From contig JBEKZH010000010.1 of the NCBI GenBank assembly GCA_049510065.1, forward strand, positions 17,653 through 81,652: 64,000 nucleotides of DNA. The letters run 5' to 3'. Of this stretch, positions 6,142 through 63,733 are shown in pieces. Source of the stretch: Bryobacteraceae bacterium. GTDB taxonomy: Bacteria > Acidobacteriota > Terriglobia > Bryobacterales > Bryobacteraceae. The notes beneath the pieces are model-generated. The model was not told the origin of the DNA, searched no databases, and saw only the letters and a program-made list of their open reading frames with translations. The position numbers and the translations under genes were made by a program. How positions within the stretch are numbered: position 1 is the first letter of the stretch; every line of letters begins with the position of its first letter.

Positions 6142-6170
6142 CGGCGGTTGCTGAAGACGGTCTTCTGGCT

Positions 6171-6257
6171 CCACTCTCTAACGTTCGCGGCTCGGTGAGT
6201 GCCGGCAAACACGAGCCAGCGTTTCCGAGCCGCGCACGTCAGTAAGCGGTTTTCGGG
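6171..6257 (+). repeat. REP-like palindromic element, family 'CGCGGCTCGGT...CCGAGCCGCG'
   Basis: CACTCTCTAACGTTCGCGGCTCGGT-(loop)-TTTCCGAGCCGCGCACGTCAGTAAGCGGTTTT. A ~13-bp GC-rich stem. Related copies lie at 11044-11117 and 41719-41790 (inverted), with a half copy at 31923-31962. Confidence 0.7.
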
Positions 6258-10889: not shown

Positions 10890-11043
10890 CATTCTCCGGT
10901 CGCCGCCACCGTCCGGCGCCCGTACCGGGGCCTGGCTTGGATTCCAGCCGTGGAGCCGGCAGGTAAAGGAATTGCACTTGAGTGCAGGTTTTGCCGGTGC
11001 CCGCGTAGCCGTCCTGACAGCCCGTGGCAGAACTCTCGAACAA

Positions 11044-11117
11044 CCGCTTGCTAACGCGCGCGGCTCAGTAGAATCAGTGCGTTGCCGAGCCGCGACCGTC
11101 AGGAAGCGGGTTTTGCC
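11044..11117 (+). repeat. REP-like palindromic element, same family as 6171-6257
   Basis: CTAACGCGCGCGGCTCAGTAGAATCAGTGCGTTGCCGAGCCGCGACCGTCAGGAAGCGGGTTTTGCC. Confidence 0.7.
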
Positions 11118-22241: not shown

Positions 22242-24293
22242 ATGAAGCTCATCAGCGCGTTTCTGACGGTATGCGGACTGTTGGCGGCTCAGGCGTCGCA
22301 GGCTCCGAACCCGGTTCAGCACTCAACCGGGAATGCGGCCGGGATGGCCGCTGGCTCGATGCCTGTCTATCACGTCACTGTGATAGCCCGGACCACGAAG
22401 GCAATCAACTACAATCACCGCAGCGGATCCACGAAGATCGATTTCCGCGGAACGGCGCTCTTGCCGGAGGCCCGCGGAGAGGCCACGGTGGAGAGCAAGC
22501 AGGGCGTCATCAAGATCGACGCGCGCATGGAGAAACTGCAGCCAGCCACCAGGTTCGGTCCCGAGTACCTGACCTATGTGATGTGGGCCATCACCCCCGA
22601 GGGTCGTGCCACCAACGTTGGCGAAGTGCTCCTGAATGGCGACAAGACCAAGCTGAATGCCACCACGGAGTTGCAATCGTTCGGCTTGATTGTAACTGCC
22701 GAACCCTATTTCGCGGTGACTCAACCCAGCGACGTCGTGGTCATGGAGAATTTCGTCAGGCACGATACAGTCGGAACGATTGAAGAGGTCGACGCGAAGT
22801 ACGAGCTCTTACAGCGGGGCCAATACACCTTGAACGTGAACCCAGTCGAGATCAAGCCCATGCGGCGGAACTCGAAGGTCCCGTTGGAGCTCTACGAGGC
22901 ACGAAATGCCGTCCGGATTGCACGCTGGACCGGCGCTCAGAGGTATGCCACCGATACGTTCCAAAAGGCCGTCGACGACCTGGCGAATGCTGAGGGCTAT
23001 CTGAAGGGTAAGGCGGGAAGGAAGCCCATTGGCACCGTGGCGCGCGAGGCCGTTCAAATGGCCGAAGATGCCCGCATCATCACGATAAAGAAGATCGATG
23101 CGGAGCAACTGGCCAACGAGCGCCAGGCTGGAGCAGATCGTGAGGCACTCGCCGAAAGCGGACGTGCTGCGGCACAAGCCGACACCGCGCGTGTTGCACG
23201 GGACGCGGAAACGGCGCAGGTTGCCGCGCAGTCTGAAGCGGACCGCTTGAAGCGGGAGAACGCCGCGAAGATGGAGGCTGCTCAGAATGAAGCGGATCGT
23301 GCAAAGCGTGACAACGCAACACAGATGGCCGCTACGCAGACCGAAGCCGATCGCTTGAAACGCGAGAACGACGCCAAAGCGGCCGCCGCTCAGACCGAAG
23401 CGGACCGGCTGAAAAAGGACACTGCAACACAGATCGCCGCTACCCAGACCGAAGCCGATCGCTTGAAACGCGAGAACGACGCCAAAGCGGCCGCCGCTCA
23501 GACCGAAGCGGACCAGCTGAAAAAGGACAACGCGGCACGGATGGCCGCCACGCAGACCGAAGCCGATCGCTTGAAACGCGAGAACGACGCCAAAACGGCC
23601 GCCGCTCAGACCGAAGCGGACCGGCTGAAAAAGGACACTGCGGCACAGATGGCCGCCACGCAGACCGAAGCCGATCGCTTGAAACGCGAGAACGACGCCA
23701 AAACGGCCGCCGCTCGGACCGAAGCGGACCGGCTGAAAAAGGACAACGATGCGCAGACGGCTGCCGCGCAGGGCGAAGCCGATCGTCTGAAACGCGAGAA
23801 CGACGCGCAACGGGCTGGTGCCCAGGCCGACCTTGATCGCGCGGCCGCGGAGAAGGCGGAATTGCGAGCTCAGCTACTGAGCCAGTTCAACGCCATCCTG
23901 CAGACTCGCGACACACCGCGTGGTTTGGTCGTGAACGTGTCGGATGTTCTTTTCGACACGGGCAAGCATTCGTTGCGGCCTCTCGCGCGCGAGAAACTGG
24001 CGAAGGTGGCCGGCATCGTCTCGGGGCATCCCGGTCTGAGGCTGGATGTAGAAGGTCACACTGACAGCGTCGGCGGCGACGAGTACAACCAGCGGCTCTC
24101 CGAACAGCGCGGAGAGACCGTACGGGATTACCTGACCCAGGAGGGAATGGCGGCGAGTTCAGTCACGACGAGAGGCTTCGGCAAGACTCAACCGGTGGCT
24201 TCCAATAACACCGCGGAGGGCCGGCAGCAGAATCGACGGGTGGAACTGGTGATCTCCGGCGAAGTGATCGGCACATCGATCACAGCCAGGTAA
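22242..24293 (+). CDS. OmpA-family protein with long coiled-coil tandem-repeat region
   Basis: Signal peptide, an N-terminal domain, ~200 aa of TEADRLKRENDAKAAAAQ / TEADRLKKDTATQIAATQ repeats, and a C-terminal OmpA_C domain (LFDTGKHSLRP...VEGHTDSVGGDEYNQRLSEQRGETVRDYL...NRRVELV). Confidence 0.9.
   Translation: MKLISAFLTVCGLLAAQASQAPNPVQHSTGNAAGMAAGSMPVYHVTVIARTTKAINYNHRSGSTKIDFRGTALLPEARGEATVESKQGVIKIDARMEKLQPATRFGPEYLTYVMWAITPEGRATNVGEVLLNGDKTKLNATTELQSFGLIVTAEPYFAVTQPSDVVVMENFVRHDTVGTIEEVDAKYELLQRGQYTLNVNPVEIKPMRRNSKVPLELYEARNAVRIARWTGAQRYATDTFQKAVDDLANAEGYLKGKAGRKPIGTVAREAVQMAEDARIITIKKIDAEQLANERQAGADREALAESGRAAAQADTARVARDAETAQVAAQSEADRLKRENAAKMEAAQNEADRAKRDNATQMAATQTEADRLKRENDAKAAAAQTEADRLKKDTATQIAATQTEADRLKRENDAKAAAAQTEADQLKKDNAARMAATQTEADRLKRENDAKTAAAQTEADRLKKDTAAQMAATQTEADRLKRENDAKTAAARTEADRLKKDNDAQTAAAQGEADRLKRENDAQRAGAQADLDRAAAEKAELRAQLLSQFNAILQTRDTPRGLVVNVSDVLFDTGKHSLRPLAREKLAKVAGIVSGHPGLRLDVEGHTDSVGGDEYNQRLSEQRGETVRDYLTQEGMAASSVTTRGFGKTQPVASNNTAEGRQQNRRVELVISGEVIGTSITAR
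23232..23824 (+). repeat. In-frame tandem repeat array (54-nt unit, alternating pair = 108 nt, ~11 units) inside the OmpA gene
   Basis: Near-identical DNA blocks such as CAGACCGAAGCCGATCGCTTGAAACGCGAGAACGACGCCAAA(A/G)CGGCCGCCGCTCAGACCGAAGCGGACC(G/A)GCTGAAAAAGGAC recur along 23.3-23.8 kb. Confidence 0.85.
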
Positions 24294-24364: not shown

Positions 24365-25156
24365 GTGGAGGAATCCCATGATCAACGTGTGGATCATCGT
24401 ACCGGCTGTTCTCGCCCTCTACTTGTTGGCTTCCATCAAATTCTCAGGGAATACGAACGGGGCGTAGTGTTCCGGCTGGGCCGCGTCCTGCCACAGGCCA
24501 AAGGACCGGGCATCGTGCTGGTCTTCGCGCCGATTGACCGGATGGTGCGGATGTCACTGCGCATCGAGGCGTTGGAAGTGCCTGCCCAGGACGTGGTGAC
24601 GCGCGACAACGTGACCGTGAAGGTCAACGCGGTGATTTTCTTTCGTGTAATCGATCCGCGCCTCGCCGTGCTCGAAGTCTCCAATTTCCTGTACGCAACC
24701 TCGCAACTGGCGCAGACCACCCTGCGCAGCGTTTTGGGCGAAGCGGAGCTCGACGAACTATTGAGCCAGCGTGGCAAACTGAATCTGCGCTTGCAGTCGA
24801 TCCTGGATCAGCACACGGCGTCATGGGGCATGAAAGTCACGCTGGTTGAGGTGAAGCAGGTGGAGTTGGCCGAGCAGATGATTCGCGCCATCGCCCGGCA
24901 GGCCGAAGCCGAACGCGAGCGTCGCGCAAAAGTCATCCATGCCGAGGGTGAATACCTGGCCGCGGAGAAACTGGCGATGGCTGCCGCCGTCATCCAGCAG
25001 CAGCCGGCGGCGATCCAGTTGCGTTACCTGCAAACCCTTGTGGAGATCGGATCCGAGCACAACACGACCATTGTCTTTCCGCTCCCGATCGATCTCATCA
25101 CTTCCATGACGCAGATGCTGAATGGCTCGAAGAAGACCGGAGCGACTGTCTCGTAG
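24365..25156 (+). CDS. SPFH/Band-7 (stomatin/slipin-like) protein; N-terminal TM helix lies in a different frame (see findings)
   Basis: [13 protein letters not shown]...[18 protein letters not shown]...[12 protein letters not shown] is typical stomatin. The body frame opens only at GTG 24365. An SD-preceded ATG at 24378 encodes [21 protein letters not shown] in the +1 frame. Confidence 0.8.
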
Positions 25157-25372
25157 CGATTTCTTTGCGCTCTCCGTTCCTTGCCTTCCCAGGCCTGGAA
25201 AGAACTGCCGCGCACTCGCCTGCCCTCGCCCGCCGGAGACTTCCCGATCCTGCTCGACTTGACCGAACCAGTCGGGTTTACCGGCGGTGAGGGTGATCGC
25301 AAAGGACAGCAGGAGAGGTATCAGGTGGTCGGTTTCATGGTCACCTTCTACCATATAACCGCAAAGGTCGCT

Positions 25373-25474
25373 CGGCTAATTCGGGGACGGGCGACGAATT
25401 CCCGCACCGGGATGCCCATTGCAAACAACTCACCGTATGCCGTGGAATTTCGTTGCCCGTCCCCGAATTAGCCG
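25373..25474. repeat. ~101-bp palindromic MITE/RPE-like element, family 'AATTCGGGGACGGG' (copy 1)
   Basis: CGGCTAATTCGGGGACGGGCGACGAATTCC...GGAATTTCGTTGCCCGTCCCCGAATTAGCCG. About 20-bp terminal inverted repeats plus inner complementarity. Located between convergent genes. Confidence 0.8.
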
Positions 25475-25498
25475 CGCAGTTACCTCCGCCCAATAACA

Positions 25499-28315
25499 TC
25501 AACGGGCCAATTGGACCTCCTGTTGCTCGCCCCGGTACGAAACCACCTTGTCCGGGTTGGCCGTAACCTCCACCCCAGCGCCACGGCCTTTCCCCACAAC
25601 GACGACACGAAAAGTCCGCGCCTTCAACATGCCCGGGAAAGTTCCCTTTCTGGCATCGATTCTGAGCTGGCGTTTCGCGTCATCCCAGTGAAACGCAATC
25701 GTTGCATAGACGCCCTTTTCGTAGTTGTAGTTGTCGTTTTCGTCCTCATACAGCGTGAAGCTGCCGTCGGCGCCGGGATAGATGCGCAACTCAATGGGGT
25801 CGGCCGGTTTCTCCGTGGAGTATTGAACGAATGGGCCCATCGGCAGGATGGACCCTGCCTTCACCATGAGCGGCATCTTGTCGATGGGAGCATCCGCGAC
25901 GACGCTCCTGCCGCCGGTGAGCGTTTCTCCCGTCCAGAAATCGATCCACTGATTCCCGGCCGGCAGATAAACCGTTCTTGTTTTCTGCCTTGGCTCGTAA
26001 ACCACCTCCCTGGCGTGAATTTCCGGAGTCTTCCAGTACATCTGAGCCCTGAACGCGCCCAAAACCGCGTTGGAGGTCTCAAACGCGAAGTCATATTCTT
26101 TTCCGGCCTCCAGTTCCACGGGAATGGTCCAGGACTCCATCGAGTCGTAGTTGTGAGGCAGTTCCTTGCCGTCCAGGTACACCCGTCTCGGCCCGAAACT
26201 CTTCATGTTGAAGCGATGTGTTCCGGTTTGCGTCGGAATCAGTTTACCTTCCCATCGCATCGAGAACTTCGGATTAGTAATAAACCTAGGCCAGCCCGTG
26301 TACCAATACAAGTTGATATCCGGCTCCACGCCTTCGTGACACAGCGTCTTGAACTCCGCATCGCAATAGTATCTGGCGGTCAGGCCCGGCTTTCCGTCTT
26401 TCGTCCTGAAGTTCCCGGGCGCAATGGGAATGCTGCCCTCCGGCGGCCGATGGTACATGTACTCGGTCACCGGGGAGACCATGATCGCGGGGCCGAACAT
26501 GAACTGATCGTCGATGGAATACGTCTTCCGGTCGCGCGCGAAATCCATCGGCAGGCCGCGCATGATCGAATACCCATCGTGGGTGACCTGCCAGCCCAGT
26601 GAATAGATGTAGGGCAGCAGCCGGTATCGCAGGTTGTCGAACTTCACGAGCACGTCGCTGTATTCGCCGAACTCCCAAATCTCGCGTGGAGTCTCCGAGC
26701 CATGTGACCGGAAAATGGGAGCGAAAGCCCCAAACTGAAACATCCGGGTGTACAGTTCCTGATACGCCGGATCCTTGCCGCCGTTCATGAAGACTCCGCC
26801 CTGGCACCCCAACGAATAGGCGCCGATGTCGAATGTCCAATAAGGAATGCCGGCCATGCTGTGATTGATGCCGGCGGGTATCTGTTTCCTGAAAACTCCC
26901 CAATCCGCGCCGATGTCTCCCGACCACGTTGTTGCCGCGGCCCGCTGCTGGCCGGCGAAGGTCGACCGTGTGAGAATGTACACGCGCTTCCGATCGGTCT
27001 CCTTCCGCTGGTTCTTATACAGGGCTTCCGTGACTACCAGCGAGTAAGGATTGAGGTATCTGGCGAAAGAGCCGAGATGATTGTTCTCCACCCGCTTCAT
27101 CTCATACTCCTCGGACTCCTTGGTGAGCGCGTTGACGATGTCGGGCTCGGTCGAGTCCATCCACCATGCGTCAATTCCCTTGGAGAATAAGCCCTTGTTC
27201 GCGTATTGCCAATACAAATCGTTCGCCGCCGGATTGTACGCATCGTAATACTTGAAGCCGGCCCAGCCCACCGGCGAATACAAATACCCGCGGCGTTCCA
27301 TATCCTGGTAAATCGGCGAAGCGGGTCCGAGCCCGGCCCAGATGGAAATCATGATGTGGAAATTCTGCTGGTGAAGCAGATCGATCATTTCCTTCGCGCG
27401 GGGGTACGTCTTTTCGTCGAAGAACATACCGCCCCACTTGTCATTCCCGCCCCAGTAATTCCAGTCCTGGACGATGTTGTCGATCGGAATCCGCCGCTTG
27501 CGGTATTCCTGCGCGATGCCCAGCAGTTCGTCGCGGGTCGCGTAATGCTCCTTGCTCTGCCAATAGCCGTAAGCCCACTTTCCGTACATCGGAGCCTGTC
27601 CCGTGAGCTGCCGGTATCCGGCGATGACCTGATCCATCGACGGTCCAAAGACAAAGTAGTAATCGATGTTATCGGCCACTTCGGACCAGAGCGACATCGC
27701 TTCCCGATTGTCGGTGAAAATCGTCTTGGAATAGTTGTCCCAGAAGATGCCATATCCTGCGGTCGAAATCAGGAAAGGTGTGACCGCATCGGTATTGGAC
27801 TGCACCAGCTTCACCGTGCGCCCGCGATAGTTCATGTAACCGGACTGATGCTGCCCAAGCCCGTACACCCCTTCCTCCGGCGTCAGCTTGAAATCCTGCT
27901 GAACGTTGAAGGCGGCCTTTTCATGCTCGATTTGAGCCGGAGCGAAAATGGCCTTCCCCCGCTCTTCGAGAACAGTCCGGTTGTCGCTGGCGAGATACCG
28001 AATCGCCCCATCGCTCTTGCTCACCTGTAGGGCGATCCGGCCTGAACTCAGCGTGATCGCCGCCGCGCTCTCTTGAAAACGCACGCTGAGATCCGGCACA
28101 TCCTTCTGAATAACGGAAAGGCTGGCCTTCTCGGAAATGCCGCCGGCCGGCCACTTCACGACGCGAACCGTGCCCTCCGAATAGAACTGCACTTTGACGT
28201 TCAGATCGCCGGCGGTCAGTTGAACGCCATTCCGGATGCGCCGAATGTCCTGCGCGTTCGGACAGGAGACTAAACAGAGTCCCGTCGCAAGGAGGGCGAG
28301 AGTCGAGAGTTTCAT
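25499..28315 (-). CDS. Glycoside hydrolase family 31 enzyme (alpha-glucosidase/alpha-xylosidase type) with PA14 insertion
   Basis: Start at the ATG at 28315 (lipoprotein-like MKLSTLALLATGLCLVSC). The GH31 catalytic context KGIDAWWMDSTEPD is present, with a PA14-like segment (GLTARYYCDAEF...). The longer ORF extension is not protein-like. Confidence 0.85.
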   Translation of the reverse strand: MKLSTLALLATGLCLVSCPNAQDIRRIRNGVQLTAGDLNVKVQFYSEGTVRVVKWPAGGISEKASLSVIQKDVPDLSVRFQESAAAITLSSGRIALQVSKSDGAIRYLASDNRTVLEERGKAIFAPAQIEHEKAAFNVQQDFKLTPEEGVYGLGQHQSGYMNYRGRTVKLVQSNTDAVTPFLISTAGYGIFWDNYSKTIFTDNREAMSLWSEVADNIDYYFVFGPSMDQVIAGYRQLTGQAPMYGKWAYGYWQSKEHYATRDELLGIAQEYRKRRIPIDNIVQDWNYWGGNDKWGGMFFDEKTYPRAKEMIDLLHQQNFHIMISIWAGLGPASPIYQDMERRGYLYSPVGWAGFKYYDAYNPAANDLYWQYANKGLFSKGIDAWWMDSTEPDIVNALTKESEEYEMKRVENNHLGSFARYLNPYSLVVTEALYKNQRKETDRKRVYILTRSTFAGQQRAAATTWSGDIGADWGVFRKQIPAGINHSMAGIPYWTFDIGAYSLGCQGGVFMNGGKDPAYQELYTRMFQFGAFAPIFRSHGSETPREIWEFGEYSDVLVKFDNLRYRLLPYIYSLGWQVTHDGYSIMRGLPMDFARDRKTYSIDDQFMFGPAIMVSPVTEYMYHRPPEGSIPIAPGNFRTKDGKPGLTARYYCDAEFKTLCHEGVEPDINLYWYTGWPRFITNPKFSMRWEGKLIPTQTGTHRFNMKSFGPRRVYLDGKELPHNYDSMESWTIPVELEAGKEYDFAFETSNAVLGAFRAQMYWKTPEIHAREVVYEPRQKTRTVYLPAGNQWIDFWTGETLTGGRSVVADAPIDKMPLMVKAGSILPMGPFVQYSTEKPADPIELRIYPGADGSFTLYEDENDNYNYEKGVYATIAFHWDDAKRQLRIDARKGTFPGMLKARTFRVVVVGKGRGAGVEVTANPDKVVSYRGEQQEVQLAR

Positions 28316-28347
28316 GGGAACTACAGCCAGTATACCGGTGGCCCGGC

Positions 28348-28971
28348 TCACTTCTCGTCCAGCGGGACCTCGAAGTAGAACAGCTCCTGGCCAGTGGCCG
28401 CTTCCCGGATGCCGGAGAGATACAACTTCGCGCCGGGCACGTGCCGTGTCTGAAAATAGAAAAACCCGCTGGCGCCCTCGCGCGGCGGCAGCATCCTCAC
28501 GGCAAAGGCGCGGCCCTCGATTTCCCATTCGCTCATCGGGTTTTTCTTTGACCCGCCTCCACCGGTGGGGATGGGCAGCGGCACCCCGCCTCCCGGCACG
28601 CGTTTCGGATTCCGTACGCCCCGCAGCCTGCCCAGATCCTGCGGCGGCGTCGGGTCCACGTTGCGGCCGTCGGGCATCTGATAGTGGACCTCGAGATTGG
28701 CGAGGGTCAGTGCCTTGTTCGTGTCATTCTGGAGGATGACCAGCACCGGCAGAATGCCATAGTCGTAGGGGTTGTGCTTGCCGAAGGCCGGGCGCGCCTG
28801 GTCGTCGGTAGTGTACGGCACGGCCGCGATGGTGACATGGTCGATGGTCTGCCGCGTGGGATAAGATAAGGCCGGGCCGGGCGAGAACTTCTTCTCGTCT
28901 TTGTTGTCCGCCATCAGCAGGGCCGAACCCGCTGCGATGAAGACAATCAGATACCTCGAAAACAGGTTCAT
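28348..28971 (-). CDS. Hypothetical secreted protein
   Basis: Signal peptide MNLFSRYLIVFIAAGSALLMA and protein-like composition. No motif recognised. Confidence 0.5.
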   Translation of the reverse strand: MNLFSRYLIVFIAAGSALLMADNKDEKKFSPGPALSYPTRQTIDHVTIAAVPYTTDDQARPAFGKHNPYDYGILPVLVILQNDTNKALTLANLEVHYQMPDGRNVDPTPPQDLGRLRGVRNPKRVPGGGVPLPIPTGGGGSKKNPMSEWEIEGRAFAVRMLPPREGASGFFYFQTRHVPGAKLYLSGIREAATGQELFYFEVPLDEK

Positions 28972-31387
28972 TATTCTTCTCACTCTGGTCCTGCGGACCG
29001 TCGCGTTTCCATTCCTGCTTCTCTATTTTCTGCGGCGCATCGCGCGCGATCGCAACTGGCTGCGCAAACTCGCGGAACGGTTTGGCAGCCTGCCCGCCTC
29101 GTTCTCCCGGACGCCGCCGGGCGCCGTGTGGTTGCATGCCGTTTCGGTGGGCGAGATCCTCTCCGCCGTTGAGCTGTTGAAACAACTTCGCGCCGCGCAG
29201 CCGTACGCACCTCTCTATGTTTCCACAACCACGCTGGCCGGCCGCGCCGTGGCCGACGAGAAGCTGCGCGGTCTCGCCGCCGGGGTGTTCTACCTGCCCA
29301 TCGATTACGGCTTCGCCATCCGCCGCGTGCTGCGCGCCATTCGCCCGAACGTGGTAGTGATCCTCGAAACCGAACTCTGGCCGGTGCTGTTCCGTACGGT
29401 CACCCGCGCCGGCTGCGCGCTGCTGATCGTCAACGGACGGATTTCCGACCGCGCCTGGCCCCGCTATCGCCGCATGCGCTGGTTTTTCCGGCACGTGCTG
29501 GAACTCCCGCGTCTGATTGCCGTGCAGAGCGAGGCCGATCGCCAGCGCTTCCTCGAGTTGGGTGCGCCCGAGCAGAACGTGATGTTGGGGGGCAATTTGA
29601 AATACGATGCCGCGCCCGCTACCGCCCCGCCGCCCTTCGCCGTTCATGCCGATGCAGTCTGGATCGCCGCCAGCACCACGGCCGCCGCGGAGCCGGGCGA
29701 CATCGACGAAGACGACGCCGTGATTGCGGCCTTCCAGCAACTCGCCCCGGACCACCCCGGTCTGCTGCTGATTCTGGTTCCGCGCAAGCCCGAGCGTTTC
29801 GCGGTGGCCGTTGCGAAGTTGACCGCCGCCGGAATCCACTTCCTCAACCGCTCCGAGCTGGGTCGTTCGTCCAATTCGGGGACGGGCGACGACATTCCGC
29901 ACCGCGAAGCCGCTGGAAACGATCCACCGGTCACTGCGGAATCTCGTGGCCCGTCCCCGAATTGGACGCGCACCAACCTCCCCGGCGTGCTCCTGCTGGA
30001 CACTCTGGGCGAGTTGAACAGCATCTTCCCGCTGGCCGACGTCGTGTTCATGGGCGGAACGCTGGCGCGCCGCGGAGGGCACAACATTCTGGAACCGGCC
30101 GCCGCCGGGAAGCCGTTGGTCGTGGGGCCGCACATGGAGAACTTCGCGGCCATCGCCGCCGAGTTCCGCGCCGCCGATGCGGTGGTGGACATTGCCGGAC
30201 CGGCGGACCTGGCCGCCGCCGTTCGGGACTTACTCCACAACCCCGCTCGCCGCGCCGCCCTGGGCTTCCGCGCGCGCGAGCTGGCGCTGGCGAAGCGCGG
30301 AGCCACCGAGCGCGCAGTCCGCGCGATTGTGGAAGCGCGCGATCTGGCCGTGCCCCGCTTCGACGGCCGCGGTGCGGCGTACCCCCTGCTGGCGCCGCTC
30401 GCCCTGCTGTGGAAGGCCGGCAACTGGTGGAGGGAACGGCGCGATTTCGCCCGCGCACGGTCGCTCCGAACGCCCGTAGTGAGCGTAGGCGGCATCGGCA
30501 TGGGCGGCGTTGGCAAGACACCCATCGCGCTGTTCCTCGCCAGACGGCTCTCCGCGGCCGGTCTGCGGCCCGCCATCCTCACGCGCGGCTACGGACGCAA
30601 GTCCTCCTCGCGCGCGGTCATCGTCCCCGCCGGCCGGCGAGTGTCCGTGGATGAGACCGGCGACGAGGCCCAGATCTTCGTTCAGGAGGGTCGCGCCGAC
30701 ACCGGCATCTCCGCCGGCCGCTTCGAAGCGGGCCGAATGCTGGAGGAGTTGACCCGGCCTGGTGTCTTCATCCTCGACGATGGCTTCCAGCATCGCCGGC
30801 TGAAGCGCAAATGCGACATCGTGCTGATTGACGCGCTCGATCCGTTTGCCGGTGGGGCGCTGTTCCCCGCGGGCCGTCTCCGGGAGCCGCTGACGGCGCT
30901 CGCGCGCGCCGATGCGTTCCTCATAACCCGCTCCGAACCGGACCGCGAATACCGCGGCATCCGCCAGGTGCTGGCCCGGTACAATCCGCACGCGCCCGTG
31001 TTTCACTCGCGCGCACAGCCAACCGGCTGGGTCGACCACGCAACCGGCCGTCCTGCCGAAGTCAGGCCCGGCCCGGCCGTCGCCTTCTGCGGAATCGGTA
31101 ACCCCCGTTCTTTCTGGCAGACCCTGCGCGATCTGGGCATCCAGCCGGCCTTCGCCTGGGCGTTCGACGACCACCACAGCTATTCCACGCGCGAACTGCA
31201 ACGTCTGGGGGCCCAGGCTTGCCGCCACGGTGCCCCGGCGCTGCTGACAACCCGTAAGGACTCCTTCAATCTCCCGCCGAATGCCGCAGAGCTGGTTGCT
31301 CCGGCGGCCATTCTCTGGCTCGACATTGAGGCGCAAGTATTTGAAGAAGAGTCACTTATACGGTTAGTTCTAAGTATGAGTGCATAA
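28901..31387 (+). CDS. waaA/lpxK: Fused Kdo transferase (WaaA/KdtA) - tetraacyldisaccharide 4'-kinase (LpxK)
   Basis: One uninterrupted 828-aa frame. The N-terminal part has WaaA motifs (LRKLAERFG, AVWLHAVSVGE, LLLDTLGEL, GGHNILEPAA). The C-terminal part is LpxK with the P-loop VSVGGIGMGGVGKTP, ILTRGYGR and FILDDGFQH. The exact start is uncertain (ATG 28937 is also possible). Confidence 0.85.
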   Translation: MLSAISRAEPAAMKTIRYLENRFIILLTLVLRTVAFPFLLLYFLRRIARDRNWLRKLAERFGSLPASFSRTPPGAVWLHAVSVGEILSAVELLKQLRAAQPYAPLYVSTTTLAGRAVADEKLRGLAAGVFYLPIDYGFAIRRVLRAIRPNVVVILETELWPVLFRTVTRAGCALLIVNGRISDRAWPRYRRMRWFFRHVLELPRLIAVQSEADRQRFLELGAPEQNVMLGGNLKYDAAPATAPPPFAVHADAVWIAASTTAAAEPGDIDEDDAVIAAFQQLAPDHPGLLLILVPRKPERFAVAVAKLTAAGIHFLNRSELGRSSNSGTGDDIPHREAAGNDPPVTAESRGPSPNWTRTNLPGVLLLDTLGELNSIFPLADVVFMGGTLARRGGHNILEPAAAGKPLVVGPHMENFAAIAAEFRAADAVVDIAGPADLAAAVRDLLHNPARRAALGFRARELALAKRGATERAVRAIVEARDLAVPRFDGRGAAYPLLAPLALLWKAGNWWRERRDFARARSLRTPVVSVGGIGMGGVGKTPIALFLARRLSAAGLRPAILTRGYGRKSSSRAVIVPAGRRVSVDETGDEAQIFVQEGRADTGISAGRFEAGRMLEELTRPGVFILDDGFQHRRLKRKCDIVLIDALDPFAGGALFPAGRLREPLTALARADAFLITRSEPDREYRGIRQVLARYNPHAPVFHSRAQPTGWVDHATGRPAEVRPGPAVAFCGIGNPRSFWQTLRDLGIQPAFAWAFDDHHSYSTRELQRLGAQACRHGAPALLTTRKDSFNLPPNAAELVAPAAILWLDIEAQVFEEESLIRLVLSMSA
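29868..29968. repeat. ~101-bp palindromic element, family 'AATTCGGGGACGGG' (copy 2), located inside the waaA-lpxK reading frame
   Basis: CGTCCAATTCGGGGACGGGCGACGACATTCCGCACC...GCGGAATCTCGTGGCCCGTCCCCGAATTGGACG. It is translated in frame as ...RSSNSGTGDDIPHREAAGNDPPVTAESRGPSPNWTR... Confidence 0.8.
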
Positions 31388-31922: not shown

Positions 31923-31962
31923 CCGCGTTTCCGAGCCGTGCGCGTGAGCAAGCGGTAACTCT
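31923..31962 (+). repeat. Half copy (right arm) of the REP-like family seen at 6171-6257
   Basis: CGCGTTTCCGAGCCGTGCGCGTGAGCAAGCGGTAACTC compared with GCGTTTCCGAGCCGCGCACGTCAGTAAGCGGTTTTC. Confidence 0.5.
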
Positions 31963-32017: not shown

Positions 32018-32866
32018 ATGAACGGAATCAGGACAGTCCTGCTGCTGGGAGTTCTCTCGGGCATCCTGCTGTTCGCGGGCGAGCTGATCGGCGGTCGCAA
32101 CGGCTTGTACACGGCGGTCCTGATCGCCATCGCCGTGAACTTCTTCAGCTACTTCTTCTCGGACCGGATGGCCTTGTCCATGTACTCGGCGCAACCGCTC
32201 ACCCAGACCGAGAACCCCGAGATCTACAACCGCCTGTATCCGCTGGTGTGGGGCCTGAGCCAGCGCATGGGCATTCCCATGCCGAAGCTCTGGGTGTTGC
32301 CCGAAGATTCGCCCAACGCGTTCGCCACCGGGCGCAACCCGCAGCATGCTTCGGTGGCGGTCACTGCCGGCATCCTGCGCCTGATGAGCGATCGCGAACT
32401 GGAGGGCGTGCTGGCCCACGAGCTGGGCCACGTGGTGAACCGCGACATTCTCACCAGCTCCATCGCCGCCACCCTGGCCATGGCCATCACGTTCCTGGCC
32501 CGCATGGCCTTCTGGTTCGGCGGCGGCCGCGACGACGAAGACCGCGGCAATCCCGTGGCGGCGCTGGCCATGCTGATTCTCGCGCCCATCGCCGCGCTGC
32601 TGATTCAGATGGCGGTCTCCCGCACGCGCGAGTATGCCGCCGACGCCACTTCGGCCGAGGTTACGCACGACCCCGGCGAGCTGATCTCGGCGCTGGGCAA
32701 GCTGGAAACGTGGTCGAAACGGATCCCCATGGCCGGCGTCAACCCGGCCACCGTGCACCTGTTCATTGTGAAGCCCTTCAGCGGCCGGAGCCTGATGCAG
32801 CTCTTCTCCACACACCCATCCACGGACGACCGCATTCGCCGGCTGGAAGAAATGCGGCGCCAGTAG
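32018..32866 (+). CDS. htpX: Zinc metalloprotease HtpX
   Basis: N-terminal TM segments, HELGHV zinc motif, REYAAD, and the C-terminal STHPSTDDRIRRL. Confidence 0.9.
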   Translation: MNGIRTVLLLGVLSGILLFAGELIGGRNGLYTAVLIAIAVNFFSYFFSDRMALSMYSAQPLTQTENPEIYNRLYPLVWGLSQRMGIPMPKLWVLPEDSPNAFATGRNPQHASVAVTAGILRLMSDRELEGVLAHELGHVVNRDILTSSIAATLAMAITFLARMAFWFGGGRDDEDRGNPVAALAMLILAPIAALLIQMAVSRTREYAADATSAEVTHDPGELISALGKLETWSKRIPMAGVNPATVHLFIVKPFSGRSLMQLFSTHPSTDDRIRRLEEMRRQ

Positions 32867-33031
32867 TGTCCTGTCCCAGTTAACACTTTGCAATCCAGAC
32901 CTCCGAAGTGGGGCAGGCAATTCTGCCTGCATGACCCGCTTTCCAGCGGGTAATGCCGCCTGAAAGGCGGCTGCGGCCAGGATTGGCCGCCCCACAAGTT
33001 GTTGTTAATTATTAGCTGGGACAGGACACTA
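32864..33031. repeat. 168-bp element with 16-bp perfect terminal inverted repeats (TAGTGTCCTGTCCCAG / CTGGGACAGGACACTA) and four internal hairpins
   Basis: Fills the whole htpX-vapC intergenic space. Its outermost TAG/CTA triplets serve as the stop codons of both convergent genes. Internal stems: GGCAG..CTGCC, CCCGC..GCGGG, GCCGCC..GGCGGC, GGCC..GGCC. Confidence 0.75.
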
Positions 33032-39979: not shown

Positions 39980-40264
39980 ATGGCAGACGAGTCTCCGGCA
40001 ACCAAACAGGACATCCAGGATCTGAAGGCTGCCGTTGGACAGGACATCCAGGATCTGAAGGCCGCCATGGGACAGAACGTCCAGGACCTGAAGGCCGCCA
40101 TGGAGAAGGTCGAGACGACGTTGCTTTCCGAGTTCTGGAAGTGGGCTCGCACGAACGACGTCAAAATTCGCTCGGTCACCAGCCGTTCCAACGACTTCGA
40201 CGAGCGGCTGCTACTCATCGAAGAGCGGGTTTCCGAACTGGAGCGCAAGCGGAAGGCTTCCTGA
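39980..40264 (+). CDS. Hypothetical coiled-coil protein with 3 x 11-aa tandem repeat (QDIQDLKAAVG)
   Basis: ATG at 39980 after GGAG. A 33-nt DNA repeat x3 at 40007-40105. The region is AT-richer than its surroundings. Confidence 0.5.
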   Translation: MADESPATKQDIQDLKAAVGQDIQDLKAAMGQNVQDLKAAMEKVETTLLSEFWKWARTNDVKIRSVTSRSNDFDERLLLIEERVSELERKRKAS

Positions 40265-40714: not shown

Positions 40715-41722
40715 ATGCACCCACGAAGAAGTTTCCTGCGTTTCGCCTCTCTCCTGCTGCTGTCGATCGCTGCGGCGGCCGCCCAGGCGCCGAGGTACGA
40801 GATCGTCGATGGCCACCTGCACTTCCTGAACTTTGTCCAGGACACCGCCGGGATGGACGCGTTCTTCAAGGCAATGGACGACACCGGGGTAGTGGAGTCG
40901 GCTGTGATCGGCATGCCCGTCGTGAAGAAGTGGGACGAGGGAGACGAGAAGCGGCCCACCTACTACCTGGACAACGACGCCCGTACCTATTGGTACAGCG
41001 CGACCGATTTCCTGGTGGCGCGGGCCGTGCTCGACCTGCCGAAGGATAAGCAGGCCCGTCTGCATCCGTTCATCTGCGGCTTCAACAGCGCGGATCGAAA
41101 CGCGGTGGATCATGTCGCGCGCATGCTGGCGCTCTACCCCAACTTCTGGCAGGGCATCGGCGAAGTGTTCCTGCGTCACGACGACCTGACCGCGCTCACC
41201 TACGGCGACACCCCGCGCGCCACCACCAGCGCGTTTGGCCGGCTGCTGGACCTGGCCGCGGCACGCGACCTGCCCGTGCTGGTCCACAGCAACATCGGGC
41301 CGGCCTGGCTGGAGCAACCCAACTACCTCGGCGAAATCGAGTCGGCCATTCGGGCGCATCCGAAGACTCGAGTGATCTGGGCGCACGCCGGCATCAGCCG
41401 CCGCATCGTCATCGCCGATCACACCGACATCCTGCGCCGTATGCTGGGCCAGTATCCGAATCTCACGGTCGACTTGTCGTGGGTCATCTTCGAACAGGAG
41501 ATCGCGCCCGGCGGCGTGCTGGACCGGAGATGGGTGACGCTGCTCGAAGAGTATCCCGGCCGCTTCGTGATCGGTTCGGACAGCGTGGGCTTTTTTGACC
41601 AGTACAAGCCGACCCTGCAGCGCTACTACCTGCTGCTGGATGCGCTCAAGCCGGAGACCGCGCGAAAAGTGGCGCACGACAACTTCCTGGCCCTGCTTCC
41701 CGCGCGCCGGACCACTCCCTGA
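40715..41722 (+). CDS. Amidohydrolase-superfamily (TIM-barrel metal hydrolase) protein, secreted
   Basis: Start at the ATG at 40715 (signal peptide MHPRRSFLRFASLLLLSIAAAAAQA). VDGHLHF HxH motif, later VLVHSN and IWAHAG. Confidence 0.7.
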   Translation: MHPRRSFLRFASLLLLSIAAAAAQAPRYEIVDGHLHFLNFVQDTAGMDAFFKAMDDTGVVESAVIGMPVVKKWDEGDEKRPTYYLDNDARTYWYSATDFLVARAVLDLPKDKQARLHPFICGFNSADRNAVDHVARMLALYPNFWQGIGEVFLRHDDLTALTYGDTPRATTSAFGRLLDLAAARDLPVLVHSNIGPAWLEQPNYLGEIESAIRAHPKTRVIWAHAGISRRIVIADHTDILRRMLGQYPNLTVDLSWVIFEQEIAPGGVLDRRWVTLLEEYPGRFVIGSDSVGFFDQYKPTLQRYYLLLDALKPETARKVAHDNFLALLPARRTTP

Positions 41723-41790
41723 CGGTCGCGGCTCAGTAATGATCGTTCGCGTTTGTTGGCGGTTACCGAGCCACGAACGTGAGAGAGTGG
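41719..41790 (-). repeat. REP-like palindromic element, same family as 6171-6257 (inverted orientation)
   Basis: The reverse complement reads CCACTCTCTCACGTTCGTGGCTCGGTAACC...ACTGAGCCGCGACCGTCAG. Confidence 0.7.
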
Positions 41791-42083
41791 TTGCGACAGA
41801 ATAAGATGTGGGGTTCGGTTTGTGGATCGACGGCGAGGAACGGCTGGCATGGGCCCGGGGCACCCATGAGTACCGCCCCATGGGCGCGGCCGTGGTGGCG
41901 GTAACGGACCAGTTCCGCCACCGCGACTTCCATGGTAGCCATTGCCTGCCCGCGCACCTGCGGAATTCGTTCGCCGGGTTCTTCGGCTCGCTGGAAGACT
42001 TGAACGAGCACCTGCGGCGTCGCGCGCGCCGTTCCGCGGCACGGCTGCAGCCTCTGCGCCCGACGCCGTTGCACGTGCGCTGA

Positions 42084-58595: not shown

Positions 58596-59036
58596 GTGCG
58601 CCTGTTCGCCTTTGCCGCTGTCGTGTTTCTCGCCGGTTGCGTGCCTCCGCCCGCGCCGCCTAAGACCGATCCGACACGGGAGGCCTGGTACGGCGAGACC
58701 GTTCAACAACTGGCCGCACTGGACCGCGATGCGGAGCGCTTGCTCGCCAGCGGCAACTCGGACAAAGCAGCCGCGGCCATCATGAAAGGACTGCCGCTGG
58801 AGAAACGCCTCCTCTCCGTTTCGCGGCCCACGCTCGCCGCCACCGTCGCCGTTTCCGATCTGGATCGGCTCTATGGGCGGATGCTGCTGTCCAATCGCCA
58901 TTACGGGTGGGCTCGACTCACCTTTCAGAAGAACCTGGCCCGGTGGAGGAACTGGACGCCGGAGACTCCCGAATCCGCCCGGCGGTTGCAGCAGGCGCGG
59001 GACGACATTGCCGAGTGCGACCGGGGTATGCAGTAG
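58596..59036 (+). CDS. Hypothetical lipoprotein
   Basis: Lipobox in MRLFAFAAVVFLAGC, then a helical TPR-like body. Confidence 0.55.
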   Translation: MRLFAFAAVVFLAGCVPPPAPPKTDPTREAWYGETVQQLAALDRDAERLLASGNSDKAAAAIMKGLPLEKRLLSVSRPTLAATVAVSDLDRLYGRMLLSNRHYGWARLTFQKNLARWRNWTPETPESARRLQQARDDIAECDRGMQ

Positions 59037-59047
59037 GGGATGGTGGT

Positions 59048-59148
59048 CGGCTAATTCGGGGACGGGGCACGAAGTTTCCGCAGTGACCAGCCGGCTGGTT
59101 TCAGAGCCTTTATGGTGCGGAAATTCGGCCCCGTCCCCGAATTAGCCG
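59048..59148. repeat. ~101-bp palindromic element, family 'AATTCGGGGACGGG' (copy 3)
   Basis: CGGCTAATTCGGGGACGGGGCACGAAGTTTCCGCA...TGCGGAAATTCGGCCCCGTCCCCGAATTAGCCG, 12 nt after the lipoprotein stop. Confidence 0.8.
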
Positions 59149-59272
59149 AACGGCCTGTCACGTGAACCCCACGTGGCCCTGGCTGCATCCAACCCAGTAG
59201 GAGACCTGCGGATCACCCCTTTGTTGACAGGCATTGAGTAGTTTTGCCTAAAATATAGAACGTAAGGTCTTT

Positions 59273-60220
59273 ATGTCACTTGCCCCGGTACTGTCGCCGA
59301 TCACCCCGCGCGCAACTTCGCTGCTGGCGCAGATTGGCGGCACGCCCTTGTTGCGGCTGGATCGCATTGCCGCGGACCTGCCGGGCGTCGAGCTCTACGG
59401 CAAGGCTGAGTACTTCAACCCGGGCGGATCCGTGAAGGACCGCGCCGCGCTCAACATGATCCTGGATGGCGAGCGCAGCGGGCGGCTGCGGCCGGACCGC
59501 ATCATCCTGGACGCCACCAGCGGGAACACCGGCATTGCCTATGCCATGATCGCGGCGGCGCGCGGGTACAGGGTTCGATTGTGCCTGCCGGCGAACGCGT
59601 CGGAAGAGCGCAAGCGCATGCTGCGGGCCTACGGCGCGGAGATGATTCTCACCGATCCGGCCGAGGGCTCCGACGGGGCGATCCGCAAATGCCGCGCGAT
59701 CTACGAAGCCGACCCGGACATCTATTTCTACCCGGACCAGTACGGCAACCCGGCCAACTGGAAAGCCCACTTCGAGACGACCGGTGCGGAGATCGTCGAG
59801 CAGACCGGCGGGCGCATCACGCATTTCGTGACGTCCATGGGCACCAGCGGCACTTTCATGGGCGTTTCGCGGCGTCTCAAGCGCGACATCGCCGGCGTGG
59901 AGTGCATCTCCGCGCAGCCGTCCTCGGGCTTCCACGGGCTGGAGGGGCTGAAGCACATGCCCACGGCCATCGTGCCGGCCATCTACGATCCCGAACTGGC
60001 CGACGACAACGTCTGGGTGGAGACCGAGGACGCCTACGCCATGGTGCGGCGGATGGCGCGCGAAGAGGGCATCCTGGTGGGGATTTCGTCGGGCGCGAAC
60101 CTGGTGGCGGCGCGTGCGGTGGCGCGGCGAGTGGTGGAGCGCGGCGAAGAGGCCGTGATCGTCACCATGATTTGCGACAATGCCGACAAGTATCTGAGCG
60201 AACCGTTCTGGAATGATTAG
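59273..60220 (+). CDS. cysM: PLP-dependent cysteine synthase (CysM/CysK family)
   Basis: NPGGSVKDRAAL (PLP lysine), SGNTGIAYA, TSGTFMG. Gene context matches the CysO-dependent CysM of mycobacteria. Confidence 0.85.
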   Translation: MSLAPVLSPITPRATSLLAQIGGTPLLRLDRIAADLPGVELYGKAEYFNPGGSVKDRAALNMILDGERSGRLRPDRIILDATSGNTGIAYAMIAAARGYRVRLCLPANASEERKRMLRAYGAEMILTDPAEGSDGAIRKCRAIYEADPDIYFYPDQYGNPANWKAHFETTGAEIVEQTGGRITHFVTSMGTSGTFMGVSRRLKRDIAGVECISAQPSSGFHGLEGLKHMPTAIVPAIYDPELADDNVWVETEDAYAMVRRMAREEGILVGISSGANLVAARAVARRVVERGEEAVIVTMICDNADKYLSEPFWND

Positions 60221-60641: not shown

Positions 60642-62078
<1,437 letters not shown>

Positions 62079-63309: not shown

Positions 63310-63411
63310 AACTGCGTTCTGCGGGCACGAGATGAAGACTGGCGTAGCAAATGCGTAGCAGTCTCCGCGCAAATGCGATCGAGATTCAACGCCCTCTTAA
63401 CGTGGGGCGGT

Positions 63412-63733
63412 GGACACCAGCGATATCGACCCGGTTGAGGTGAAGGCGAAGTTGGACCGGCGGGACGCGTTCGTGCTGCTGGACGTGCGCGAGCCGCACG
63501 AGTACCAGATTTGCCGCATTCCGGGGTCGATCCTGATCCCGCTGGGCGATTTGCCGAAGAGGGTGGCCGAGCTGGACGCGTCCAGCGAGATTGTGGCCCA
63601 TTGCAAGATGGGCGGACGCAGCGCGAAGGCGGTGGAGTTCCTGCGCTAGGCCGGCTTCCGCAAGGTGCGGAATATGAAGGGCGGGATTCTGGCCTTTGGC
63701 GACAAGGTGGACGCGAGCGTTCCGAAGTACTGA
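63412..63733 (+). pseudogene. Degenerate duplicate of the moeZ rhodanese-domain 3' end
   Basis: Colinear with 61758-62078, with no indels and roughly 85-90% identity by eye. It has no upstream E1 domain. An in-frame TAG (63646-63648) replaces the CAG codon, and W->F and other substitutions follow. Confidence 0.8.

Follow-up and report, generated by a model that had tools for sequence, protein, structure and literature searches.

The 64,000-nt stretch of DNA analysed here (the window; contig JBEKZH010000010.1 of a Bryobacteraceae bacterium) carries a fused waaA-lpxK gene whose reading frame runs through a palindromic repeat element, one of three copies in the window. The 828-aa open reading frame (ORF) joins a Kdo (3-deoxy-D-manno-octulosonate) transferase of family GT30 to a tetraacyldisaccharide 4′-kinase: PF04413 (Kdo transferase N-terminal domain) matches residues 56–237 and PF02606 (LpxK) residues 495–825, PDB sequence matches are to LpxK (4ehx) and WaaA (2xci), and the AlphaFold2 model adopts the same folds. 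This fusion is widespread, with PF04413 and PF02606 found in one protein of ~780–830 aa in 120 of the 120 best homologues, many of them labelled Bryobacteraceae. Gene order around waaA-lpxK is conserved in relatives, and the homologues compared here are therefore orthologues. The ratio of non-synonymous to synonymous substitution (dN/dS) is 0.17–0.23 against close orthologues, and the value of 0.17 for the window against the orthologue at locus L001 indicates a functional gene under purifying selection. The window showed no further copy of waaA or lpxK.

The repeat is recognised by a 14-nt core, AATTCGGGGACGGG, of which the window contains six exact matches arranged in three inverted pairs (25378/25456, 29873/29950 and 59053/59130). 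With up to two mismatches allowed, eight matches are observed against 0.70 expected from dinucleotide-preserving shuffles (n = 100), none of which reached eight. The three copies can be aligned end to end in a single relative orientation, and their similarity is significant: an nhmmer profile built from copies at other loci only matched exactly three places in the window, namely 25367–25480 (copy c1), 29862–29972 within waaA (envelope 29861–29975, E = 6.4e-31) and 59045–59154 on the minus strand (copy c3). Copy c1 lies 22 nt beyond the stop of a GH31 gene (25499..28528, minus strand) and 214 nt beyond a plus-strand gene ending at 25156, while c3 lies 11 nt beyond the stop of 58596..59036 (+) and 124 nt ahead of the start of 59273..60220 (+); the coding frames beside both copies were judged by codon-position GC. 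Repetitive extragenic palindromic sequences (REPs) have been reported to sit just past gene 3′ ends (PMC3733652), as c1 and c3 do.

In the waaA copy, two arms of 34 nt each are 94% complementary and place the left and right cores 63 nt apart (Table 1). The predicted RNA minimum free energy is −75.1 kcal/mol (z −9.4), or −81.0 kcal/mol for the opposite strand, and the intergenic copies give −71.5 kcal/mol (c1, z −9.1) and −80.1 kcal/mol (c3, z −8.8). The initial annotation had described three copies of a ~101-bp element, one of them in frame within the WaaA part of the ORF; the number of copies, the sequence of the 101 nt and the open frame across the element all hold. Those 101 nt correspond to the hairpin core, and the element-derived sequence is slightly longer, with GGTCGTTCGTCC (29861) at one end and GGACGCGCA (29972) as its minimum extent at the other. 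Both flanks also occur in copies at unrelated loci, and only the final 5 nt of the coding segment (29973–29977) are of uncertain origin.

Table 1. Coordinates of the host gene and of the repeat copies in the window
Feature	Position	Strand	Basis and remarks
Fused waaA (Kdo transferase, GT30) and lpxK (tetraacyldisaccharide 4′-kinase), 828 aa	28901..31387	+	ORF list, Pfam, PDB, AlphaFold2
Element-derived coding segment	29861..29977	+	Codons 321–359 (GRSSNSGTGDDIPHREAAGNDPPVTAESRGPSPNWTRTN); protein and DNA alignments of filled and empty orthologues, nhmmer
Hairpin core, waaA copy	29868..29968	.	Arms 29868–29901 and 29935–29968, 33-nt loop
Left 14-nt core AATTCGGGGACGGG	29873..29886	+	Exact motif match; encodes N-S-G-T-G
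Right 14-nt core CCCGTCCCCGAATT	29950..29963	-	Reverse complement of left core; encodes P-S-P-N
Copy c1, intergenic between convergent genes	25366..25481	+	Motif, inverted repeat, alignment, nhmmer
Copy c3, intergenic between co-directional genes, opposite orientation	59041..59155	-	Motif, inverted repeat, alignment, nhmmer

Comparison with orthologues separates filled from empty alleles. Among the 60 closest homologues, the insert is carried only by P0002 (an identical fragment), P0001 (85% identity) and P0003 (73%); the remaining 57 contain no homologous segment and hold just 7–8 residues between …RSE(L) and (L)PGVLLLDxxGEL, and these insert-less orthologues include ones 75–90% identical. 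In the filled alleles the 7–8-residue linker RPDSTLP(L) of the empty alleles is replaced by the element segment, which adds 32–33 residues, within the range of 32–34 first estimated. At the DNA level filled alleles are longer by 96–99 nt, and by 78 nt at L002, where both edges of the element are trimmed symmetrically and in frame. The insert recurs in the window, in the P0002 contig and at L001, L153 and L002, which are five independent assemblies. The insertion in WaaA is thus confined to a few of the orthologues compared, whereas the element family itself is not lineage-specific and extends to at least six phyla. At L002 (506–3101) gene prediction splits the gene into ORFs of 677 and 190 aa, and the LpxK Pfam match falls in the second; either a frameshift or a sequencing or assembly error would account for the split, which inflates the apparent divergence of this carrier. 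We also considered a target site resembling the element end and set it aside: the empty site CCCGATTCGACGC is like CCCGAATTGGACGC, but ranks only 59–136 among ~800 windows of the same genes.

The AlphaFold2 model of the full protein, built from 104 sequences, has a mean predicted local distance difference test (pLDDT) score of 89.6 and a predicted template modelling score of 0.88. A pLDDT below 50 is confined to residues 1–5 and to residues 326–354, the sole internal stretch, which is the element peptide. The model places this peptide between strand 314–316/helix 318–324 and strand 363–365 as a predicted disordered surface loop, and sequence alignments to WaaA structures likewise break off before the insert and restart after it. 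The invariant residues D367, G370 and E371 and the GGHNxLEP stretch come after their strands, and from Rossmann-type topology we infer that the helix-to-strand connection holding the insert lies at the sheet edge opposite the substrate-binding edge. Across the 39 insert codons dN/dS is 1.1, 0.67 and 0.52 in three comparisons between carriers, and the dN of the insert is 2.7 times that of the gene. The peptide therefore looks unconstrained and roughly neutral in its evolution (dN/dS 0.5–1.1). In all likelihood the insert is no functional module but a near-neutral passenger that is tolerated.

Beyond the window, the family is defined by the 14-nt core AATTCGGGGAC(G/A)GG, arranged as an inverted doublet ~63 nt apart. 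The exact arm pair at the same spacing is found in species representatives of at least six phyla (Acidobacteriota, Hydrogenedentes, Actinomycetota (Collinsella), Deltaproteobacteria, Verrucomicrobiota and Betaproteobacteria), in genomes that include several Collinsella, deltaproteobacterial metagenome-assembled genomes (MAGs), Vicinamibacteria, Thiobacillaceae and Methylacidiphilales. One Hydrogenedentes MAG contains at least 20 copies, and the doublet is abundant in soil and peat metagenomes. Most family members are intergenic and lie a short distance beyond gene 3′ ends. At least 157 non-nested copies from genome and metagenome loci share a common geometry with a modal core length of 87 nt, and ~50 of them are 75–88% identical to the window copies over the full length. 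Hairpin energies across copies range from −61 to −81 kcal/mol (z-scores −4.4 to −10.3). The invariant core columns are imposed by the search pattern; the outer stem is not, and it covaries, with 68 cells altered in both partners where shuffles gave 19.8 ± 4.3 (0 of 500 reached 68), double changes at seven stem pairs, and 96.2% of stem cells paired compared with 28.6–52.5% when partners are slid. An inverted repeat of at least 6 bp lies within 66 of 312 arms, compared with 6 of 312 shuffled controls. The head adjoining the core reads GTAG in the Hydrogenedentes copies and CGTC, CGTG or CGTT in the Bryobacteraceae subfamily. The waaA copy and a second intragenic copy, in imuB, both begin exactly at GGTCG and thus represent a shorter form of the element.

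Rfam at gathering thresholds found only a tRNA, a permissive Rfam scan yielded nothing but hairpin matches far below threshold (mir-8521, 32.5 bits against 80), and a full-text search of the published literature matched the core sequence only to unrelated primer strings. A hairpin favoured on one strand was suspected from a single stem pair (A-T 25, G-T 18, G-C 9, A-C 0) and dropped on folding 52 oriented copies (mean −64.6 kcal/mol sense versus −66.6 kcal/mol antisense; 21 versus 31 copies). Several individual copies have unusual arrangements. At L020 (2780–2970) one element is nested within the loop of another, and the terminal 14–15-mer is tandemly duplicated (AATTCGGGGACGGG twice) at element ends there and at L033 (2600–2640) and L026 (805–840). 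In L020 an unpaired arm and a full element enclose an ORF that was suspected of encoding a transposase; by eye its product looks nitroreductase-like. The copy at L051 (623–729) has no left outer arm, and the host DNA on either side of it forms a perfect 17-nt inverted repeat (CACGAATAAACACGGAT / ATCCGTGTTTATTCGTG), as if it had been inserted in the centre of a pre-existing hairpin.

The family is linked to transposases of a particular kind. A search of 828 kb of locus sequence (155 sequences) returned three homologues of REP-associated tyrosine transposases (RAYTs), each abutting hairpins with the architecture of the element. The homologue at L032 (1816–2499) scores 79.8 bits against the cutoff of 80 for NF047646, the NCBIfam model of REP-associated tyrosine transposases (E 1.8e-22), and lies between elements of a sister variant, AATTAGGGACAGTCACC, that show tandem terminal repeats. 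At L110 an element with the exact motif ends ~19 nt upstream of the transposase start codon, and at L087 another starts ~20 nt past the transposase 3′ end. A protein search added further PF01797 relatives flanked by GGGAC(A/T)G hairpins (L155, L156/L158 and L159), as well as one in an Acidobacteria MAG (L160) with AATTCGGTGACAGGCTAC ~60 nt upstream, one mismatch from the motif. The transposases found are PF01797/NF047646 proteins, several of them from Acidobacteriota. Most relatives of the element-associated transposase (P0241–P0335) lie on contigs of ~1 kb, which may reflect assemblies breaking at flanking high-copy repeats. The 14-nt core is probably the recognition sequence of one transposase clade, which would explain its conservation across phyla. 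Because RAYT-type genes are flanked by the element motif, we file the element as REPIN-like, that is, with the REP doublets mobilised by RAYTs; the terminal inverted repeats of the initial annotation are real inverted arms, better read as the two REP-like arms of such a doublet than as the ends of a MITE (miniature inverted-repeat transposable element) of the DDE type.

Intragenic copies were sought by collecting stop-free frames that span copies, filtering them by codon-position GC and inspecting the remainder. This screen left two independent events among the ~150 copies sampled: waaA-lpxK (the window, L001, L153 and L002) and imuB (L106). In L106 the element occupies the variable linker of ImuB and is read in the same frame as in waaA (NSGTGDDIPHQNVTGNHSQADAESRCLSPNW), and the insert is absent from more than 45 orthologues. 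In two ImuB orthologues, P0121 and P0124, this linker holds ~20 additional residues of another sequence (…GAGLTRGEVAMVTLSADKV…), and it seems to be a recurrent acceptor of insertions. In the other candidates (L018, L028, L045, L071, L086, L139 and L141) the element lies just upstream of the real start and is hence intergenic. A match in Methylacidiphilales (L024, 2812–2896) has an atypical interior, with GGGACGGGCCTAGGCCCG repeated; it lies in a coding-like stop-free frame beyond an exosortase EpsH domain and is an ambiguous intragenic candidate.

Taken together, we consider it probable that the waaA insert is a copy of a REPIN-like, RAYT-linked mobile repeat that landed in frame and is tolerated as a passenger. 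In the mechanism that we propose, two inverted REP-like arms with the core AATTCGGGGAC(G/A)GG at ~63-nt spacing would form a long hairpin, and a RAYT-type HUH/Y1 transposase would act on this hairpin in single-stranded DNA and mobilise the repeats. One copy would have entered the waaA half at the short linker ahead of the β-strand that bears the LLLDxxGEL motif, swapping ~21 nt for ~117 nt. The net gain of 96–99 nt is a multiple of three and the frame has no stop codon, so the gene would have stayed intact. The ribosome would then read across the hairpin, and the 32–33 extra residues would make up a disordered loop where the C-terminal Rossmann-like sheet has its N-terminal (helix-to-strand) edge. 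The nested insertion in L020 and the filled and empty orthologous sites are indirect signs of mobility.

Several observations weigh against this interpretation. The junctions are not clean, since ~21 nt of host linker are unrecognisable in the filled alleles, and translation of the insert is read from the open frame. The 64-kb window contains no transposase homologue, so that the RAYT link is one of family. Just ~30% of the arms have a small palindrome of their own, the classical REP feature, and ~70% have none of at least 5 bp. Many relatives are ~150 nt long and have outer inverted ends (AGCCTGTGGC/GCCACAGGCT), sometimes with direct repeats of ~5 bp, and thus resemble DDE-type MITEs. Finally, the carriers are not monophyletic, with the empty alleles of L007 and L154 nested among them.

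The long form raises the alternative of a classical MITE, derived by deletion from an insertion sequence with a DDE transposase. It would travel in double-stranded form by means of its terminal inverted repeats and duplicate its target site, and the adjacency of RAYT genes would be incidental or reflect a landing preference for them. The inverted ends AGCCTGTGGC...GCCACAGGCT are what such an element would have; flanking direct repeats of ~5 bp are seen at L040 (CCATC/CCATC), L146 (CTATG/CTATG), L079 (TTAAG/TTAAG) and L045, and the nesting of one element in another, together with the tandemly duplicated terminal 14-mers of L020, L026 and L033, is in keeping with it. These direct repeats are absent or imperfect in other long-form copies, and no direct target-site duplication is recognisable at the waaA or imuB copy. 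Moreover, the conserved part of the long form is internal rather than terminal, and its outermost bases vary between copies of one genome yet stay complementary, which is atypical of ends cleaved by a transposase. No autonomous element with the same ends and no long-distance motif pairs were found in the 155 sequences, a plasmid BLAST gave no match to the element, and no viral contig contained the doublet pattern. Every inspected Y1-transposase homologue, by comparison, is bracketed by GGGAC(A/T)G-motif hairpins, and we regard a MITE origin as unlikely. A decaying or non-functional gene copy, or an artefact of assembly, is extremely improbable: the divided gene of L002 could be a frameshift, but the insert recurs in independent assemblies, the ORF is intact, gene order is conserved, the invariant residues of the catalytic region are kept and dN/dS is low in a gene with no other copy seen in the window.

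The history of the waaA copy is more complex than a single clean insertion inherited vertically, which the gene tree does not support. Carriers and the two empty alleles (L007 and L154) form one shallow clade, and monophyly of the carriers is recovered in 0 of 200 bootstraps on all shared codons and in 25 of 200 within 100 codons of the site. The ancestral RPDSTLPL linker survives in the empty alleles and is gone from the filled ones; simple deletion of the element could not restore it and therefore cannot account for the empty alleles. We prefer a single origin followed by allele exchange or lineage sorting, with recurrent insertion at one site, or precise transposase-mediated excision ahead of junction remodelling, as the remaining options.

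The hairpins of the orthologous waaA copies have meanwhile stayed strong (−75, −67 and −61 kcal/mol), although the proteins are just 73–85% identical, and differences between the carriers are compensatory across both arms (GACGGG/CCCGTC versus GACAGG/CCTGTC; TTCCGCA/TGCGGAA versus TTCCGCG/CGCGGAA). Such a pattern could mean that selection keeps the insert since an mRNA or DNA hairpin, or the extra loop, is useful to waaA-lpxK through a translational pause, mRNA stability or a protein or membrane contact; synonymous divergence between the window and L001, 0.21 in the insert versus 0.50 in the rest of the gene, points the same way. This synonymous signal rests on 5–13 changes and is reversed in comparisons with L002, the folding energies show no strand asymmetry that would point to a function at the RNA level, and the peptide is nearly neutral and predicted to be disordered. 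The insert is missing from the closest relatives, L154 (P0011) and L007. Gene conversion by other genomic copies explains the kept hairpins equally well, because all three window copies share the same state (all G-C, where most metagenomic relatives have A-T or G-T). Co-option of the insert by its host thus seems very unlikely to us, and the tolerated REPIN-like passenger remains our preferred reading.

A broader proposal combines three claims: that the core AATTCGGGGAC(G/A)GG marks one REPIN-RAYT lineage spread horizontally over at least six phyla, that intragenic hairpins are selected or repeatedly re-homogenised, and that the insert is patchy because site-specific insertion and precise excision still go on within an essential gene. 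We find this combination rather doubtful as a whole; if true, the horizontal spread would contradict the current view that REPIN-RAYT pairs are specific to a species and passed on vertically. What deserves following is the core shared across phyla and the patchiness of the insert in an essential gene. The tolerated passenger would add free-living Acidobacteriota of soil to the reduced intracellular genomes and few proteobacteria whose protein genes house selfish DNA. With an essential lipid A/Kdo enzyme as host, it illustrates the permissiveness of a helix-to-strand surface linker in a GT-B glycosyltransferase, and it implies that length outliers of WaaA-LpxK and ImuB in metagenomes can be repeat insertions and not new domains. 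The conserved core provides a simple probe for a widespread REPIN-like family and its transposases, and the patchiness among close relatives offers a natural system for precise insertion and excision in coding DNA.

Other repeats were noted in the window. A separate, unrelated hairpin family (ACCGCTTGCTAACGCGCGCGGCTCAGTA ... TTGCCGAGCCGCGACCGTCAGGAAGCGG) is intergenic at 6170–6250, 11043–11110 and 41711–41791, with a half-copy at 31925–31956 just past an Hsp20 gene, and the genome therefore holds at least two REPIN-like families. Arms with the motif GGGACAGGACACT follow AATTA-rich sequence at 1145–1175, 32864–32895 and 33002–33031; two of them are inverted, 108 nt apart, just downstream of an M48 peptidase (htpX-like) gene, and the motif resembles the sister variant that flanks the L032 transposase. 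Among tandem repeats, at least ten units with a 54-nt period (60–86% identity) at 23115–23884 are probably a repetitive protein-coding region, and three 33-nt units (79–91% identity) lie at 40006–40104. A 300-nt direct repeat at 61755–62054 and 63410–63709 (86% identity, 1655 nt start to start) possibly represents adjacent paralogous genes.

Of the known systems, REP and REPIN-RAYT families are the nearest in architecture. As in those, an inverted doublet of arms can fold into one hairpin, be it single-stranded DNA or RNA, conservation is higher in the arms than in the spacer, copies are many per genome and mostly extragenic, and HUH/Y1 transposase genes are bracketed by the repeats. Here, however, a 14-nt core is common to at least six phyla, whereas REPs are usually species-specific and REPIN-RAYT pairs are described as vertical; only a minority of arms has its own palindrome, and the GTAG head is limited to the Hydrogenedentes subfamily. 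Also near in kind are the TIRtrons of Di Nocera et al. (2013, PMC3733652), in which long inverted repeats sharing the motif GGGGWSAS enclose a TIRYT (RAYT-like) gene; one sharply defined group of their transposases is acidobacterial. The commonest core variant in our set, GGGGACAG, fits GGGGWSAS exactly (L001, L002, L110, L087 and most subfamily copies), while the three window copies read GGGGACGG, one base off, in a comparison judged on the published motif only. TIRtron flanking repeats are also dispersed families, often dimers, although abundance here appears much higher than in the published 'moderately abundant' families. Beyond that transposase group, we found no Acidobacteria-specific description in the literature.

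In-frame carriage has a parallel in the Rickettsia palindromic elements (RPEs), palindromic repeats found in frame in protein genes (Ogata et al. 2000, 2002, as cited in PMC3733652). The likeness drawn in the initial annotation is apt for behaviour, and we claim no membership by sequence: both are carried in frame at loop positions of unrelated genes (here waaA-lpxK and imuB, in the same element frame), add ~30–45 residues in a loop of a host protein under selection, and vary in presence between related species. The hosts differ in phylum and lifestyle, free-living soil Acidobacteriota with large genomes here and reduced intracellular genomes for RPEs; intragenic copies are rare here (two events in ~150 copies) and frequent for RPE-1, and RPEs are without a known dedicated transposase. 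The expectation that such carriage would be new holds for the gene, since waaA/kdtA or lpxK was not found as a reported host of palindromic elements in the literature searched, but not for the phenomenon: a 2013 catalogue (PMC3733652) already lists REPs, single or as dimers, in frame within genes from several non-rickettsial phyla. The intragenic GTAG/CGTC REPs of that catalogue occur in Opitutus terrae, Thauera, Xanthomonas, Stenotrophomonas and others, and its intragenic REP dimers encode 20–30 residues within functionally characterised genes and are in excess in DNA-repair genes, including the error-prone polymerase gene dnaE2 (PMC3733652). The repeat described here appears to fall in the GGGGWSAS-motif group and not in the GTAG-1/CGTC-1 families; its second host, imuB, is the operon partner of dnaE2.

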